A stretch of 64,000 nt of DNA from an uncultured cyanobacterium (lineage in GTDB: Bacteria; Cyanobacteriota; Cyanobacteriia; CAKZMO01), in NCBI GenBank assembly GCA_963719515.1, contig CAVRCJ010000010.1, positions 384,001-448,000 of the forward strand, read 5' to 3'. Positions 46,005 to 60,180 of this stretch are shown here, piece after piece (the first letter of the stretch is position 1; each line of letters starts with the position of its first letter). A program made the position numbers and the translations under genes. The notes below the pieces were generated by a model. The model had not been told where the DNA came from. It did no database searches and saw only the letters and a list, made by a program, of their open reading frames with translations.

Positions 46005-47048
46005 ATGACTACAGCTACCAGACAAAAGCGTTCTAGTAAAGTGCAGGGGAGTCCTTCCTCCCCTACAGCGCCGTCCACCGCGACGCGAATTGTTGCCCTC
46101 GACGCCGGCAACTACGACCTCAAGTTTTTCGACGGGGTGAATCACCCCAAGGCGATACGCTCGGTGCGCTATCAGCTTCCCCAGGGCCGCGACCCCGTCA
46201 GTACCTCAGACGCCTCGCCCCTAGTCGAGCTTTCCGACGGCACCCGCTACCACTTCGGGGCCCAGGCCTATAAATATCGCCGTCAGCAGCAAACGGTCAT
46301 CGAAAATAAGATAGAGCTGGCGCGTTTGCATCTCTACGCCTGTTTAGAGCCGCTCAACGGCATGTCTAGCGAATTTTCTCTACAACTGCATCTGTCGACC
46401 CCTGAGCCCGGTAAGCACGGTGAGGCTCTGAAAAAAGAGCTGCGAGGGCTGCACGAGTTTACCCGCAACGGCATCGAGTTCCGCGTCAACGTCGAGAACG
46501 TCACCGTAGAGCGCGAGGGCATGGGAGCCTACTGGTACGCCAAGAACCAGGGCTTTATTCCCAACCAGGGCTACACCATCGTCGTTGATATCGGCGGCGG
46601 CACCTGGCTCACCCGGCTAGTCGATGGGGAAGGCGAGGTAATAGACGAGAACGTGATGAATCGAGGGGGCTCCTACGAGCTAGCGGTCTCTATCAGCTTC
46701 GATCGCCGCCTTACCGACGCCCTGGGCACCACGGCAGACCCCAGCCTTGTGATGGATGGATTCCGCAGCGGTCACGGCTACGCCGACACAGGGCTCTCTT
46801 GGAGCCCCTGGCTCGACGAGCACCTTGACCCCTGGTTCAAAGGCATTTTCCAAACCGTCAAGGCTCAATACACCCCCTATATGGCCCGCGTCACCAAGTT
46901 CCTCGTGACGGGCGGCGGCTCCCACCTCATTTCCGAGCGACTTGCCGGACGTAAACTGTTTACCGTGATGGGCGACCCTCAGTTCGCCAACGTTCGCGGT
47001 CTGTACCTTCTTACCCAAGACAGCCAGCTATGCATGACAACAAAGTAA
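46005..47048 (+). CDS. ParM/StbA-family actin-like ATPase
   Basis: Phosphate-1 ALDAGNYDLK, connect-1 VEREGMGA, phosphate-2 VVDIGGGT, adenosine VTGGGS, connect-2 PQFANVRGL. Confidence 0.9.
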   Translation: MTTATRQKRSSKVQGSPSSPTAPSTATRIVALDAGNYDLKFFDGVNHPKAIRSVRYQLPQGRDPVSTSDASPLVELSDGTRYHFGAQAYKYRRQQQTVIENKIELARLHLYACLEPLNGMSSEFSLQLHLSTPEPGKHGEALKKELRGLHEFTRNGIEFRVNVENVTVEREGMGAYWYAKNQGFIPNQGYTIVVDIGGGTWLTRLVDGEGEVIDENVMNRGGSYELAVSISFDRRLTDALGTTADPSLVMDGFRSGHGYADTGLSWSPWLDEHLDPWFKGIFQTVKAQYTPYMARVTKFLVTGGGSHLISERLAGRKLFTVMGDPQFANVRGLYLLTQDSQLCMTTK

Positions 47049-47320
47049 GACTTAGCCAAGATGTGATCGACAAAGCGCAGGTGATCGCCACCGAATGGGG
47101 TCTGAAAAACGCCCGCGCCGCCGTTGAGGCCGTGTTTCGCCGCTATTCAGACGAGTACCTATACGGGCGACAATCCTCAGGGCCAATAGGTCAGCCAGTG
47201 GGTCAGCCAGTGGGTCAGCCAGTAGATTTACCAGTGGGCCTGCCGCTGCGGGCCGTTCCTGCGAGCGCCGCCGCGAGCTGCGAGGCGCTAGAGGAGCTAG
47301 ACGATCTGCTGGCGATGTGA
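47030..47320 (+). CDS. ParR-like small adaptor (RHH-like N-terminus, acidic C-terminal helix)
   Basis: Overlaps the parM stop; KVRLSQDVIDKAQVIATEWGLKNARAAVEAVFRRY; C-terminal EALEELDDLLAM. Confidence 0.7.
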   Translation: MHDNKVRLSQDVIDKAQVIATEWGLKNARAAVEAVFRRYSDEYLYGRQSSGPIGQPVGQPVGQPVDLPVGLPLRAVPASAAASCEALEELDDLLAM

Positions 47321-47333
47321 GGCGGCATAGGGG

Positions 47334-48482
47334 CTAATGTCTTAGGGCGTTATCTACGGCCTGCTGCTGATCGCGGCGAGTAATCCAGCGGTGGTAGGTC
47401 TGGGTGTGGAGACTCACGGAATGCCCCATCATCTGGGCCGCGACGGTGTCCGGTAGGCCGACGTGAATGGTGCGTACGGCCCAAGCGTGACGGAGGTCGT
47501 AGGGCTTAAAGGGGAGGCGGTAGCGGCGCAGCTGGGTCGTCACTTTTTGCCCAATGCGCTGCAGGGTAGTTTGACTCAGATCGGTGGTTAGCTTTGGCAA
47601 AACTACAGTCTGCAGCTCAAACTGCTCTACCCATTCTGGGTGGAACGGCCATACCTCGCGCTGTCCGGTCTTGGTGGTTTCCAGCACCTCTACGGAAGCG
47701 CGAGAAGGGTCTGACGCCTGCAGTAGGCGATCGCAGTTGCAAAAAAACACCTCGTGGTTACGCAACCCATAGGCCGCCATCATGCCGTAAACGAAGCGCC
47801 ACCCTGGATTAGGAATTTGGCGGTAGGTCTCAACAATCGCCTCATCCGTAGGCAGCTGCCGCAGCTTCGCGTGGGTGCGGCTGTAGCTGCCCCAGCGCTG
47901 ATCTAGGTCAGGGAGCTCTAAATCGAGAAACTGAGCGAAGGCGCTGAGGGCGGTGTAGGCCACTTGGCGGCTGCGGGAGCGCGGCGGAATAGCGTCGAGG
48001 GTGGTGTAGATGGTCTCAGCTAAAGTGAGCCGAGAGGAGGATTGGGCCGCTGCCTCCAATTTGCGCAGGTAGGGAGCGTAGGCCGTCCGCCAGGTGGTTT
48101 TGGCGGCGGCCTGGGCCATGACGGTTTGGCGCTGCTGAAAGAAGCTCGCCTGAAACGCCTCAATCTGCTCTGAAAGGCACAGCTGGTGCAGCCGCTTCCC
48201 CCCAGGCTGATAGTTTCGCCAGTCGAAGGTGCGCTCTATCAGCTTGGCGGCGATAATCTTCGCCTCTTGTTCCGCCTGCTTCAGCCCGGGCTTTGTGGCC
48301 GGAAGCCCTAGACTGAGGCGCTGCTGGCAGGGGCGGAGCCGGGCGCTCTCGGGGCGGGGCGGAAAGGTGCCCCGCAAACTCAGCTTTTGCCCCCGGCGCT
48401 CGAGATGTACGCCGAGCTGGGCGGCTTTTAGCCGTTGATTGATCTGTTGGAGGCGGAGATCGATGTCAGCTGAGGGGACCAT
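47334..48482 (-). CDS. Tyrosine recombinase (XisA/XisC-like)
   Basis: N-terminal LSLRGTFPP arm-binding-type domain; YGLRNHE, TKTG, PYDLRHAWA, MGHS, HTQTY. Confidence 0.9.
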   Translation of the reverse strand: MVPSADIDLRLQQINQRLKAAQLGVHLERRGQKLSLRGTFPPRPESARLRPCQQRLSLGLPATKPGLKQAEQEAKIIAAKLIERTFDWRNYQPGGKRLHQLCLSEQIEAFQASFFQQRQTVMAQAAAKTTWRTAYAPYLRKLEAAAQSSSRLTLAETIYTTLDAIPPRSRSRQVAYTALSAFAQFLDLELPDLDQRWGSYSRTHAKLRQLPTDEAIVETYRQIPNPGWRFVYGMMAAYGLRNHEVFFCNCDRLLQASDPSRASVEVLETTKTGQREVWPFHPEWVEQFELQTVVLPKLTTDLSQTTLQRIGQKVTTQLRRYRLPFKPYDLRHAWAVRTIHVGLPDTVAAQMMGHSVSLHTQTYHRWITRRDQQQAVDNALRH

Positions 48483-48729
48483 TGTCAAACAGTCGCAAGT
48501 ATTGTGACAGAGGAGAGCTTAAGACGGGCTTAAGGTTTAAACTAACGGTTAGCTTGTTCCACTGATAGCTTATAGAAAGCGAATTTATAGAAATAAATCG
48601 TTCGCTGGATTCTGACATCTACACCGATCGATGCCAGTTTCAGCGCTAAGATTAAGAAATATTATCTTTACTATAGAAGATACTGAGTCGTCTACAGTTG
48701 GTTCGCTTAAGTTTGTTATCTCATAGACA

Positions 48730-55656: not shown

Positions 55657-55959
55657 TCAGTCAGCTTGAGGAGTTTTCGGAGGGGGCGTATTGGTTGCGG
55701 CCCGATGAGCTTTTAGTGCTGCTGGTTCAGCAAGGTCGCTCGGTGGGGGCGGCGGCGTGAAGATGATGATGAAGGTGGCCTCTGGGATGAGGCGGCGGAG
55801 AGTGCGGGCGTGGGCGTCGGCATCGTTGCGTTTGCGGAAGCGGGCGACGGTGATGCGTTGGGCTTTGGGCAATAGGCGGATGATGCTCCAGGGGTGAAGC
55901 TGGGCGCGGTAGGTTTGGCCAGGGCCAAGATCTGCGCCAGGTTGAGATGTTGGTATCAT
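55657..55959 (-). CDS. Small hypothetical protein (PW.IIRLLP...VARFR.RNDA.AH motif)
   Basis: 100-aa ORF divergent from the XRE gene, with a hairpin-containing leader. Confidence 0.7.
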   Translation of the reverse strand: MIPTSQPGADLGPGQTYRAQLHPWSIIRLLPKAQRITVARFRKRNDADAHARTLRRLIPEATFIIIFTPPPPPSDLAEPAALKAHRAATNTPPPKTPQAD

Positions 55960-56089
55960 GGGGAAATCTTGCCCCGCTGGTGCGGGGTTTGAGAGATGGC
56001 AACTGCCCGAAACTTGCCGGTGGGAGGCAGTTGCCTTTGCGTGTCAATAAAAATAGTAAACGATAAGTACTTATCGCTTGTCAAGTACG

Positions 56090-56299
56090 ATGGGACTGGT
56101 CCGATTGCGAATTCGTGAGATGGCCGATGAGCGCGGCTGGACATTGAAGGATGTTGCCGATCGCTCTGGGGTGCCGTATAGTACGGTGCGCCACTATGCG
56201 CGATCGGAGCTGGCTACGGTTGACTTGTCGTCTGTACAGAAGATTGCTCGCACATTTGAGGCTTTGATTGAGGATTTGCTCGAAGTAGTAAAGGAGTAG
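56090..56299 (+). CDS. XRE/Cro-C1 HTH regulator
   Basis: LRIREMADERGWTLKDVADRSGVPYSTVRHY...KIARTFEALIEDL. Confidence 0.88.
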   Translation: MGLVRLRIREMADERGWTLKDVADRSGVPYSTVRHYARSELATVDLSSVQKIARTFEALIEDLLEVVKE

Positions 56300-56587
56300 T
56301 GACCAGCAAGGGCCAGGCACCTTTATTCCCCATTGAAATAGATGCAGTAAGCTCTATACAGCTCGACACGATAAAAAATCATCTGAGACTGTTGCGACCG
56401 CCACAACATACAATTTAAAAGCATTCAGAGATATATTGCTTCAGTGAACTCTAGTTTCTAAATTCGTGTTTTTTTAGCAGAATATCTCTGAATTCGTTAT
56501 TTTACTATGCCTGAGGGTACTATTAATACAGGTAGAGTTCGCTCTGGCTGTACAGTTCTTTACATACTCAAGAGCTGAAAGAATACT

Positions 56588-57136
56588 ATGGCTAAACAAG
56601 CAACTAAGCGAAAGACGCGTCCAAATATCAACAAAGTTAGAGCAGAAATTCGTGACCTCGTTGTGCAGCATGGTTATGACGATCAAATCTTGCTGGACTT
56701 TGCAGAATTCGTTAACGGCGGAGCTTTCAAGCCTGTAGAGCTGCGTATGCAAGACCTTAAGGAAGCTGTTATAGCTGAATTTAATTGTGCATCGTACAAG
56801 GATTTAAAGAAAGACAGCAGCTTTCAAATGTTTGTTCGAGAGCACAGTCTCAAAATGAATTCTAAAGCTTCCTGGCTAAAGGTTTACCGAAAGTTTGTGG
56901 GGCTGCCTCAAAGCGAGAAAAATTCTATCAGCGACACATCTATTAATGGTATTGATGTATTGCGAAACTTTTTGCCTTGGAAAGTTTTTGCCTTAGATCC
57001 GAAAACAGCCACCGCTGACCAAATCAAAACTGAGTTCAATAAGCTTGCTAAGAAGCATCATCCTGACCACGGGGGTAATGCAAACGTATTTAAGCAGCTC
57101 AAGGTAATGCGAGATAGCCTGTTAGCCGCATATTAA
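56588..57136 (+). CDS. Protein with C-terminal minimal J domain
   Basis: PWKVFALDPKTATADQIKTEFNKLAKKHHPDHGGNANVFKQL, HPD intact; AT-rich coding. Confidence 0.85.
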   Translation: MAKQATKRKTRPNINKVRAEIRDLVVQHGYDDQILLDFAEFVNGGAFKPVELRMQDLKEAVIAEFNCASYKDLKKDSSFQMFVREHSLKMNSKASWLKVYRKFVGLPQSEKNSISDTSINGIDVLRNFLPWKVFALDPKTATADQIKTEFNKLAKKHHPDHGGNANVFKQLKVMRDSLLAAY

Positions 57137-57161
57137 AAATTTAAAGATAGCTTCAGAATCA

Positions 57162-58172
57162 ATGGGAAAGTGCAATATTACGGGTAAAGAACTAGCCAGC
57201 GCCCTGGATATTAAGGAAGAGCGTCTGCTTGAAATTTGTGAGTTTTTCGATCTTGATCCAGATGACGATTGGGAGCTAATAAAAGATACCCACTTCAAGT
57301 GGGGACCTTACGGCGCAAGAATATTCAGCCCAGAGGGAGCAGTTGAAATCTGTCACTATCTGGAAAAAAATAAACAGGAACGTCCTCGTCTGAAGCGCTG
57401 GGAGCGATGGCTATTTCAACGCGATCGCCGCTTAAAGGGCCTGATGGTTGCAAAGCGCGTTCAAGAAATCAGCCAGCTTGAAGGGCAGATTGTTTTCAAT
57501 AGCGGCAGAGCGTTTCTGGAACCAAGAGCTTGCCGCGAAGTACTTGGACTTGGAACACGCCAAGATATATTGAATAGAACTTTTCAGGAGATCCAGCGAT
57601 CTGACAACGTGGAGCTTGAACCGCTGAAAATTGACGTTGACTTTTTCATTCATGAGAGAAGTGCTCGCTGCTTTAGCCGTTCTGGCCTCGCCTCAGTAAG
57701 TAAGCAGTTAGGAGTTCGGCTTTCTCAGAAGCACCGCCAGGAGTGGATGAAGGCTGTTGCCGATTATGCGCCTTCGGCCCTAGAAACGATTGAGAATCAC
57801 GAAGCAGATCGAGCAAAGCGTATCACGCGAGCAATGAACAAAATTCGCAAACAAGCGAAAGGTAGATGTCAACTAACCAACCGCCCTAAAGCAATATATA
57901 AGTTTAATCTAGAGGTTCATCACCTTTTTGATAAAAATGCTTATCCACAGCTTGCTGATATGGAGACCAATCTCATTGCTGTTGCATCTGATATTCATGC
58001 CCACTTTCATCAGTGGATGGGTGGTACACATATTACCTGTACTGTAGAAGATATGGAACGCTATATTGACGAATTTGGAAACTCCCTTTTTGATGATGAT
58101 CGTGCAGAACAGGCGACAAAAGTAGCTATTGCTCTATCTATAGCAAAGAAAACACTAAGACCATTGATTTAA
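57162..58172 (+). CDS. Putative HNH endonuclease with duplicated N-terminal DNA-binding-like domains
   Basis: RCQLT...LEVHHLFDKNAYPQLADMETNLIAVASDIHAHFH; 25 nt downstream of the J-domain gene. Confidence 0.75.
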   Translation: MGKCNITGKELASALDIKEERLLEICEFFDLDPDDDWELIKDTHFKWGPYGARIFSPEGAVEICHYLEKNKQERPRLKRWERWLFQRDRRLKGLMVAKRVQEISQLEGQIVFNSGRAFLEPRACREVLGLGTRQDILNRTFQEIQRSDNVELEPLKIDVDFFIHERSARCFSRSGLASVSKQLGVRLSQKHRQEWMKAVADYAPSALETIENHEADRAKRITRAMNKIRKQAKGRCQLTNRPKAIYKFNLEVHHLFDKNAYPQLADMETNLIAVASDIHAHFHQWMGGTHITCTVEDMERYIDEFGNSLFDDDRAEQATKVAIALSIAKKTLRPLI

Positions 58173-58212: not shown

Positions 58213-58884
58213 TTAAATCAGCTCCGGGTCTTCCCCCAACTCCCGCAACCGAGCCGCCAGCCGCTCCGCTCGCTCCTCCGGCGTCAAAAGCCGCTTCCCA
58301 ACTCCATCAAACCACCCCAACATCTCCAGGGCATCACCGCCCGAAACTCTCTCAAATCGCCCAATCCCCAAACCAATCTACGGCATCCAAAACGGCTCGC
58401 CAAGCTGCAACTGGTACACCCCATCCACCAGCTTGTAAACCTCAAACGGCTGATGCCCGTCCCGTTGCCAAAACTCCGGGTTATAGACAATGTCATACAA
58501 CACGCCCAGCTTGCTGTAAATCTCCAGCTTCTCGCCATACTCCCCACCCGGCGTCCAAGACACCACCTCCAGCGCCAGCGTAGGAACGACCTGCTCCTCC
58601 CAAACCACGTAGCTGCGGCGCAACTTCCCATCCTTCCGCCGCTTCACCCCCAAACTAAGGAACCCATCCGGTACAACCGGCACCCTAGGATGCACACCAG
58701 TCGTGTGGTAGATTCCCATATCCACGCCAAAGAACCAGTCATTGCGATCGGCCCATAGCGCCTTGAGGACAAACAGAAGGATGTTGGGAATTAGGTTCTG
58801 TAGCTGATCATCCACAGGCAAACCGTCTGAGTCGGGCAGCTCAGCGCTAAAGGGTAGACGGCTATCGACATCGGGTTGAACCAT
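58213..58884 (-). pseudogene. Uma2-family endonuclease with in-frame TAG
   Basis: LPDSDGLPVD, VPDGFL, LEVVS...EKLEIY; stop at 58378-58380, then the frame continues IGLGIGRFE...LLTPEERAERLAARLRELGEDPELI*. Confidence 0.85.
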
Positions 58885-58932
58885 AGGACAGAATAGCCTC
58901 AGCCTGATTTCAGGGCAACTACAGTGCAAAGA

Positions 58933-59307
58933 TCAAGACGATAAATAATTCTGAGCTTGCTCAACAAACACCTTTGCCGCTGTAAAAATTGTTGCCGCCT
59001 GCTCCCGCGTTAAAAATACGGTAACCTCGTAGTCACTCAGCCTTCGGAGGTCATAAGCATTGCTCAATGCCCGCGCCAAATCAACCGGCAGTTCTTCGCT
59101 TTTGATGAAATACTGACCAAAGGCTTGAATAGCCCCTTTGTGTGTCTTGTTGCTGATTCCCTTTGAGGACAATAATGCCTGGGTCGCATGGTACATAGCG
59201 TAGTAAGACCGCGAGATGCAAGCCCGATGCCTCTCATTCACTAGAAGTATCTCAGCCGTTTCTAGTTCATCCCGCGCTAGGTTTAGAAATGGGTCAATTT
59301 GACTCAC
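58933..59307 (-). CDS. HEPN-domain protein
   Basis: SRSYYAMYHA, KTHKG, DLRRLSDY. Confidence 0.88.
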   Translation of the reverse strand: MSQIDPFLNLARDELETAEILLVNERHRACISRSYYAMYHATQALLSSKGISNKTHKGAIQAFGQYFIKSEELPVDLARALSNAYDLRRLSDYEVTVFLTREQAATIFTAAKVFVEQAQNYLSS

Positions 59308-59708
59308 ACAGCAAGTCCTTCCTGCCGAATGACTTCCAGCAAAGGCGACTCCCGATGCTGATAGTCATCAGCTGAAACTGGCACTACCGAAATCAGCTCA
59401 TCGTACTTAAGATTTAGCGTCGTCTTCACGTCACCCATGCGAAAAATCTCATCGCCGGGAGAAATAGGCCCTTGGAGAACCACCATCACATCTACATCAG
59501 ACTCCGCCGTTGCCTCCTGCCTTGCATAGGAGCCATAGAGAATTAAGCCAGCAAGGCGATCGCCGTACAGCTCAATCAACCCTTGGCGAAATTCCTGCAG
59601 CAGGCAGCTTATTTTTTTGCTCGCAACCGCGCTCAAGTCAGATGGCTCCAGGCCAGGGAGTTTGGAGATATCAAGATCAGATTGAACCATGCAGCCGTAC
59701 TTATACAA
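59304..59708 (-). CDS. Minimal nucleotidyltransferase (MNT)
   Basis: LYGSYARQEATAESDVDV (GS-X10-DXD); 4-nt overlap with the HEPN gene; start uncertain. Confidence 0.88.
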   Translation of the reverse strand: MYKYGCMVQSDLDISKLPGLEPSDLSAVASKKISCLLQEFRQGLIELYGDRLAGLILYGSYARQEATAESDVDVMVVLQGPISPGDEIFRMGDVKTTLNLKYDELISVVPVSADDYQHRESPLLEVIRQEGLAV

Positions 59709-59750: not shown

Positions 59751-60133
59751 GTGACATCCTCCCGACGCTGACAGCAAGCTGTACAGCGCGGGCTTCCTCA
59801 GTGACTCCCAGCTATTGCCGAGACATATCCTGAGATAGGTTTATACTCCGCCTGATGCCCCACGGCAGAGTTTTGAATTTTCATCTCCGCGAGGGAGGAT
59901 ACGCACTATGTGTCGCAGATACATTTGCAAACTGAGGAACGGGTGACTTGCAGCTTTCGCCTACGGGCCCGTCACACTCTTTGCGGGGTGTATCACCTTG
60001 CTATCTCTATCATACCAACTGCTAGCCTCAGCGCTGAGCGCACTATCCGCTGTGCATCATTTTGCGGGCGCACTTCGGCTAGCGCGACTCTCATCCCGAC
60101 GCTCACCCTGACGGGTAGAGCGCGGGGCTTCCT
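59751..60133 (-). mobile_element. Non-autonomous IS200/IS605-family remnant (ends only, tnpB deleted)
   Basis: Two related subterminal hairpins in the same orientation (gaagccc(c)gcgct....agcgtcggga on minus); right end reads ...cgggaggatgtcac; no transposase ORF. Confidence 0.7.
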
Positions 60134-60180
60134 GTCTAGTCGCTAACTCAAGAGTACCGACACCTCTATCTTAAAGCCGC

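Follow-up and report, generated by a model that had tools for sequence, protein, structure and literature searches.

A tightly coupled cyanobacterial cassette of a J-domain protein and a predicted HNH nuclease, with a counterpart in phage virion-region proteins

Chaperone-linked systems and how the locus compares

In the TAC systems HigBAC and CmdTAC, a chaperone encoded by the system itself is the proposed phage sensor, for which a phage structural protein competes and so frees the effector; TAC systems comprise three genes, employ a SecB-like chaperone and a ChAD-bearing antitoxin, and act on translation (10.1101/2024.02.24.581848). In defence by bNACHT25, a J-domain protein relays the phage signal, and the J-domain mutants H33Q and D35N fail to restore defence; there it is the housekeeping DnaJ that acts in trans together with a NACHT sensor (PMC12169576). 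In the CbpA-CbpM pair of E. coli, MerR-like CbpM, a small stand-alone modulator without a nuclease, binds the J domain of CbpA, which is N-terminal, and competes there with DnaK (PMC4063869). MuF-linked and polyvalent proteins are reported in PMC5512222 to be packaged and injected; the terms "J domain" and "HSP70" are absent from the main text of that source, and the passages concerned describe no host nuclease partner.

Here we describe a two-gene cassette in a window of 64,000 nucleotides, the whole stretch of DNA that was analysed, from an uncultured cyanobacterium. The cassette is real, tightly coupled and uncatalogued, and its virion-region counterpart in phages was unexpected. Gene 1 encodes a J-domain protein and gene 2 a protein with tandem winged helices and a predicted HNH nuclease domain. 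The chaperone competition that we propose for the cassette resembles that of the TAC systems. Unlike them, however, it has two genes with no conserved third, a J-domain co-chaperone that would need host DnaK, and a predicted DNase, and it therefore falls outside the TAC group. In contrast to the DnaJ of bNACHT25, its J protein is dedicated and co-encoded, and has a module in common with phage proteins. The first repeat of gene 2 aligns with CbpM at Z 5.5, no better than with other MerR-like proteins, and whereas CbpM stands alone at about 100 aa without a nuclease, gene 2 has 336 aa, two repeats and an HNH domain. The HNH catalytic core is common to gene 2, EcoKMcrA, Septu PtuB and CBASS Cap5, but their N-terminal domains and partners differ. 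McrA carries paired CxxC zinc motifs, which are absent from the gene 2 sequence, and gene 2 aligns to EcoKMcrA over the HNH part alone. The cassette would thus function like TAC and bNACHT25 while being a member of neither.

The original prediction, made from the window's sequence, was that no named system was known with this pairing and that PADLOC would return no hit. None was found in PADLOC, NCBIfam or the literature searched. Among 92 members of each family, PADLOC (version of 2023) gave only stray matches for gene 1 (3/92) and weak HNH-type matches for gene 2 (4/92), and NCBIfam gave one stray match in 48, so that in no case do both genes match one catalogued system. No description of a J protein paired with an HNH protein was found in the literature within our scope, outside of which lay the supplements of large screens and most subscription papers; the passages concerned of PMC13581612 and of the Tiamat preprint deal with other matter than such a pair.

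Locus, inheritance and surroundings

Gene 1 (56588-57136, 182 aa) and gene 2 (57162-58172, 336 aa) both lie on the forward strand, separated by a gap of 25 nt (57137-57161). The reading of the locus as two closely spaced genes in an AT-richer block agrees with what we observe: the ORFs, the gap and all of the motifs quoted in the prediction are present in the translations, and the pair has a GC content of 43.3%, compared with 58.8% outside the island, a value as low being found in 0 of 590 same-size windows away from the island. Upstream on the same strand lies an AT-rich leader (56300-56587, 38.5% GC) that contains an inverted repeat of 23 nt (56418-56498). This leader is probably the promoter region; promoter-like matches in it are no commoner than in shuffled sequences, and a terminator scan was also at chance level.

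The two genes occur together almost without exception, as the original prediction had expected of a working pair. Among genome loci found through gene 1 (the best 80 of 110 examined), gene 2 lies directly downstream in all 80, some copies being cut by contig ends or broken. Metagenome loci found through gene 2 numbered 29, and gene 1 lies upstream in 24; the remaining five consist of one contig that is too short, two deletion remnants and two unrelated HNH matches. Across 401 evenly sampled genomes, gene 1 occurs at 26 places in 25 of them. At 23 of these it sits just upstream of a full-length gene 2, and all 23 full-length gene 2 matches are preceded by gene 1; the other three places hold two intact lone copies and one fragment without a J domain. 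A full-length gene 2 without gene 1 is therefore seen 0 times in this sample, and a lone intact gene 1 at 2 of 26 places. No match was obtained in the sample's 225 genomes of unlisted families, which seem largely to belong to other classes. Neither gene was found on plasmids, and no fusion of the two was found among gene 2 matches (lengths up to 588 aa searched, the longest being 398 aa). There are 13 longer relatives of gene 1, of which the five inspected look phage-type.

Across 91 intact pairs, the gap ranges from -4 to 105 nt with a median of 8. Pairwise distances for gene 1 and gene 2 are correlated (rho 0.72, against a shuffle maximum of 0.14), which points to shared history rather than to contact. 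In 7/7 comparisons the dN of either gene falls far short of its dS, which is saturated in several, and these ratios indicate that the cassette evolves under purifying selection. The arrangement is that of a type II toxin-antitoxin locus, being bicistronic with an upstream partner that is never missing beside an intact effector in the even sample (23/23); the exception, among the metagenome loci, is L084, which has a stop in gene 1. Gene 2 is broken or missing at about nine loci versus one at which gene 1 is broken (L084). This asymmetry is not significant and is biased: gene 2 offers more sequence in which to break, gene 1 was the query behind most of the loci, and some breaks may be assembly errors. 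This loss pattern leans towards agreement with gene 1 restraining the nuclease.

The cassette ranges from Prochlorococcus and Cyanobium to filamentous genera, occurs in 25 of the 401 genomes, is patchy within genera, and has a lower GC content than its flanks at 84/90 and 23/23 loci. Mobile, AT-rich and patchy in its pattern, the cassette is best explained as a horizontally moving two-gene unit of oxygenic cyanobacteria. The cassettes L038, L051 and L078, from bins that bear the names Chitinophaga, Tabrizicola and Klebsiella, sit inside picocyanobacterial clades, two of them near-identical to their neighbours, and these bins are probably mislabelled or contaminated. A distant J and HNH pair, at L125:4360-6085 (G122), belongs to the same HNH subfamily (probability 97) and has a J domain (probability 96); the N-terminal regions differ in both of its proteins, and it has no close relative in the 401 genomes.

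The flanking genes of the window's cassette were identified correctly in the original prediction but turned out to be passengers rather than parts of a system. To the left are a divergent small ORF (reverse strand) and an XRE regulator (forward strand; Pfam HTH_26) at 55657-56299, and to the right are convergent Uma2, HEPN and nucleotidyltransferase genes (58378-59708, reverse strand; Pfam). The XRE pair adjoins the cassette in this genome and in a single other one of the genus, while in another it stands next to different cargo; since it accompanies the cassette only within this genus, we rejected it as a system part. The Uma2 and MNT-HEPN genes were likewise rejected, since no neighbour cluster occurs at more than 9 of 108 loci; by the same count the cassette has no conserved third gene. 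Within the window, the Uma2 ORF at 58378-58929 stops after 183 aa while an overlapping region continues in another frame to about 58190, and this ORF may be frameshifted. An element of ~396 bp at the right edge of the island (59751-60146) is repeated, at 99-100% identity, at least 13 more times in its own and same-genus genomes and looks like a small mobile repeat. Elsewhere in the window, a ParM-like actin gene, a small ORF and an integrase-like gene lie at 46005-48488, as judged by eye from their translations.

A scan of 148 of the 269 neighbour clusters revealed that picocyanobacterial loci often have restriction, helicase and toxin-antitoxin genes nearby, and that the neighbours of filamentous loci are mostly housekeeping genes. 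For a matched test of defence-island enrichment, the 23 cases were reduced to 20, each with 3.5-kb flanks, by leaving out the window's own locus and two neighbourhoods that were duplicates. Toxin-antitoxin, restriction or Uma2 genes are present at 7/20 loci versus 1/20 control regions (Fisher p 0.044), and adding transposases and integrases, which bring in four more loci, raises this to 11/20 versus 1/20 (Fisher p 0.001). This amounts to modest support, since the categories were set after the Pfam tables had been viewed and some loci are kin. The prediction of island enrichment therefore holds in part: enrichment over controls is seen, but at 9/20 sampled loci none of the genes within 3.5 kb is of toxin-antitoxin, restriction or mobile type. 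Chaperone-related genes were seen near individual cassettes as well: a protein with an XRE-type HTH and a weak GrpE match (L013:10681-11472), and an Hsp70-like gene about 3 kb from cassette L184. At L124:5970-6389 (G246), a gene 1 fragment without a J domain precedes a dnaK-dnaJ operon by 78 nt, both being on one strand.

Domain make-up of the two proteins

Gene 1 has 135 homologues, and all of those with names are cyanobacterial; by the named homologues the host, too, is judged to be a cyanobacterium. The structural model of gene 1 (mean pLDDT 88.8) shows a two-helix hairpin (14-43) and a small helical domain (54-104), with a short beta hairpin leading on to a minimal J domain, an arrangement that draws on homologues, Pfam and the model together. 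The hairpin, taken from the model helices (residues 14-28 and 32-43) and from profile matches as residues 12-48 (56621-56731), is found in host copies only. Residues 50-128 (56735-56971) form a small helical domain, duplicated in some homologues, and an NG-containing linker, both common to the phage proteins described below. Residues 129-182 (56972-57133) constitute the J domain, with its HPD motif at 57059-57067.

The original prediction of a minimal C-terminal J domain with an intact HPD is upheld by sequence and by fold. Pfam DnaJ matches with E 8.6e-6 and 26.2 bits, slightly below the cut-off of 27.8; model residues 115-182 align to the J domains of xRbj (Z 8.5, rmsd 1.7 over 63 residues) and Tim14 (Z 8.1); and HPD is kept in 106/106 cellular family ORFs, the window's own locus being counted twice. 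With a J fold and HPD between helices II and III, gene 1 is a class C J-domain protein. The genome has three full-length dnaK genes at other sites, of which the closest is about 26 kb distant. No solved structure matched the sequence of the middle domain or any of the N-terminal two thirds of gene 1, a part that the fold search barely probed; the Atlas gave no match for residues 10-115, and Foldseek at E <= 0.001 left the gene 1 model unmatched in PDB and BFVD.

In the gene 2 model (pLDDT 88.8), two N-terminal repeats are accompanied by long helices and by an HNH domain. Repeat 1 (residues 3-72, 57168-57377) has a MerR-like winged-helix fold, with structural rows to pSK1 Par (Z 7.1), RacA (Z 7.0), MerR (Z 6.5) and CbpM (Z 5.5). 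Repeat 2 (residues 112-190, 57495-57731) is a diverged copy of it: the two repeats are homologous by hhalign (probability 95.3, E 2.3e-8), and the two similar segments of the original prediction are thereby confirmed. Their proposed likeness to ORF6N fared less well. It is modest for repeat 1 (probability 70, E 4e-5, with a 9-sequence profile) but absent from repeat 2 (probability 2), and Pfam ORF6N at E <= 0.01 matches 0/48 gene 2 members. A Pfam MWFE match, below cut-off and seen in 1/48 members, was dismissed. No solved structure matched the sequence of gene 2 or its repeats, its model was unmatched in PDB by Foldseek at E <= 0.001, and the Atlas returned only unnamed cyanobacterial clusters and HNH leads.

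Gene 2 residues 217-330 align structurally to HNH domains, with EcoKMcrA the best (Z 6.6). The rows to EcoKMcrA, Cas9 and the GVE2 HNH domain lie at Z 5-6.6, which is middling taken alone, and every fold match of gene 2 is below Z 8. The assignment of an HNH domain (about residues 232-310, 57855-58091) is accordingly based on sequence evidence rather than on fold scores. A PHROG HNH profile matches with E 2.3e-5; C236, H253, H254, N270, H279 and H283 are invariant in 48 divergent homologues, down to 23% identity, and C293 is nearly so; and the full HNH motif is present in 101/102 near-full-length copies, in keeping with the HNH-like motif originally noticed. Pfam HNH_2 is matched at E <= 0.01 in 8/48 members. 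Gene 2 thus has the His-His...Asn...His...His motif of an HNH nuclease within an HNH fold, its cleavage activity being a prediction.

Phage counterparts, proposed mechanism and alternatives

Residues ~48-182 of gene 1 find matches in viral proteins 270-932 aa long, spread over 41 contigs; many are near-identical, and 23 distinct phage modules result. Searched with the hairpin profile, the cellular loci yield 123 ORFs, whereas the 41 viral loci yield none. HPD, which was not part of the search patterns, is present in 23/23 distinct modules, and one of two short motifs of the N-terminal region occurs in 38/41 phage proteins. All ten viral loci scanned are in virion-gene regions, eight near portal, terminase or minor-head genes and two near tail or baseplate genes. 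One phage protein is fused to a minor-head region that follows its J domain, and others carry PF18796, which we take to be LPD1. Gene 2 is absent from the fetched flanks of the 41 viral contigs and was not found in viral contigs or cultured phages; gene 1 matches only two generic DnaJ genes in cultured phages, and the module is in none of them. At L155:5694-8465 and related viral loci, proteins of 918-932 aa with PF18796 and a J module at their end adjoin the portal gene, and neighbouring genes carry the same N-terminal motifs, possibly a packaging signal. At L176:7629-9760, two adjacent J-domain genes lie in a low-GC viral contig on the strand opposite the terminase and head-tail genes.

With one phage module as the query, the only matches in the 401 genomes were gene 1 copies, 35-54% identical to it. 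Of the three marker genes tested, two have cyanophages as their best cultured matches, at about 30% identity, which makes cyanobacterial hosts probable only, and the third, the L142 minor-head protein, has no cyanophage match; the viral contigs carrying the module are thus probably cyanophages. In a quick tree the phage modules fall among the host copies at some five positions, though its starred branches alone force no more than one. A single phage clade is rejected with p-AU 0.002 (134 columns, long branches) on a 62-row subset picked after the quick tree had been seen. By these analyses, the module appears to have been exchanged between hosts and phages more than once. J domains are sporadic among phages in general and are proposed aids to virion folding and assembly (PMC7824862), so that the phage copies need not concern this nuclease. 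Still, the module's presence in virion-region proteins suggests a chaperone-gated anti-phage defence.

The explanation that we favour, and consider somewhat more probable than its negation, is that the cassette is a predicted anti-phage nuclease gated by its J protein and host DnaK until infection diverts them. The gene 1 protein would bind that of gene 2 through the host-only hairpin, or would place its J domain on the MerR-like repeat as in CbpA-CbpM, and would recruit host DnaK through HPD, leaving the nuclease inactive or short-lived. Infection would then draw away the gene 1 protein or DnaK, the simplest means being a structural client from the phage or the phage's homologous J module. 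Once freed, the nuclease would be brought onto DNA by its pair of winged helices and would cut phage DNA, or host DNA in abortive infection. The phage copies may have served as the model for a host decoy, or they may be mimics of the antitoxin that were acquired from the host. What was computed is the strict coupling and order of the genes, their co-inheritance, the intact HPD and HNH residues, and the module common to phage virion-region proteins; gene 1-gene 2 binding, gating by DnaK, cleavage and protection are what we infer.

A selfish addiction module of toxin-antitoxin type, neutral towards phage, would likewise have a two-gene layout and an AT-rich, patchy and often decayed distribution, with many loci standing alone among housekeeping genes. 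Gene 1 and DnaK would neutralise or degrade the nuclease, and phages would have borrowed the J module as a virion folding aid, in line with the prediction that phage DnaJ domains assist assembly (PMC7824862). We regard this account as unlikely, given that the cassette is not found on plasmids, a common home of addiction modules, and that the only cellular matches of the phage module in 401 genomes are gene 1 copies, with exchange apparently repeated. The combination of a reader with an HNH domain, the best HNH row to EcoKMcrA, the lack of a conserved methyltransferase, as with modification-dependent enzymes, and weak REase_II matches would also fit a restriction-like nuclease of the McrA type, whose winged helices read modified or foreign DNA and whose J protein is a constitutive folding or turnover helper. 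That the McrA match spans the HNH domain alone, that the N-terminal repeats resemble MerR-like folds, and that 23/23 full-length gene 2 copies retain gene 1 although host DnaJs could replace a mere helper all make this rather improbable.

The MerR-like fold, with its row to CbpM, raises the thought of a DNA-binding regulator controlled by DnaK in the manner of HspR or CbpM, whose HNH domain binds or nicks DNA without killing; CbpM and HspR are linked (PMC4063869), and the gene 1 fragment in G246 lies just upstream of dnaK-dnaJ. Yet the cassette is patchy, low in GC and at variable sites, it has no conserved link to heat-shock genes and its catalytic HNH residues are invariant, and a regulator is to our minds highly improbable. 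An HNH domain combined with DNA-binding repeats is the layout of a homing endonuclease. A free-standing enzyme of this kind with a hitch-hiking J gene would suit that layout and the cassette's foreign composition, but we give it the least credence of all, for the flanks share no common target gene, gene 2 keeps a strict partner with matched divergence of both genes, and gene 2 was not found in phages.

Returning to the chaperone-gated nuclease, we advance a tentative and decidedly less certain extension. Cyanobacteria and their phages would be contending for a single Hsp70 co-chaperone module. Phages would pack the J module into virion-region proteins to recruit host DnaK, and hosts would keep a hairpin-bearing copy as a decoy wired to an HNH nuclease, which the phage's use of DnaK or the arrival of its client would fire; phages would then have re-acquired host versions as mimics. 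If this is true, the cassette would be a defence system centred on a J protein of its own, whose matching trigger or inhibitor is carried by the virion. The guarding of chaperones has been put forward as a general strategy for sensing phage (PMC12169576), but no system came to our notice in which the J protein for this task is encoded by the system itself. What is new here is the gene 1 module inside proteins of 41 viral contigs, through which candidate phage triggers or inhibitors are already at hand by homology. The cassette thereby makes testable both the role of class C bacterial J proteins and the reason why phages carry J domains, and it would extend the few known defences of cyanobacteria, which are dominant in aquatic primary production.
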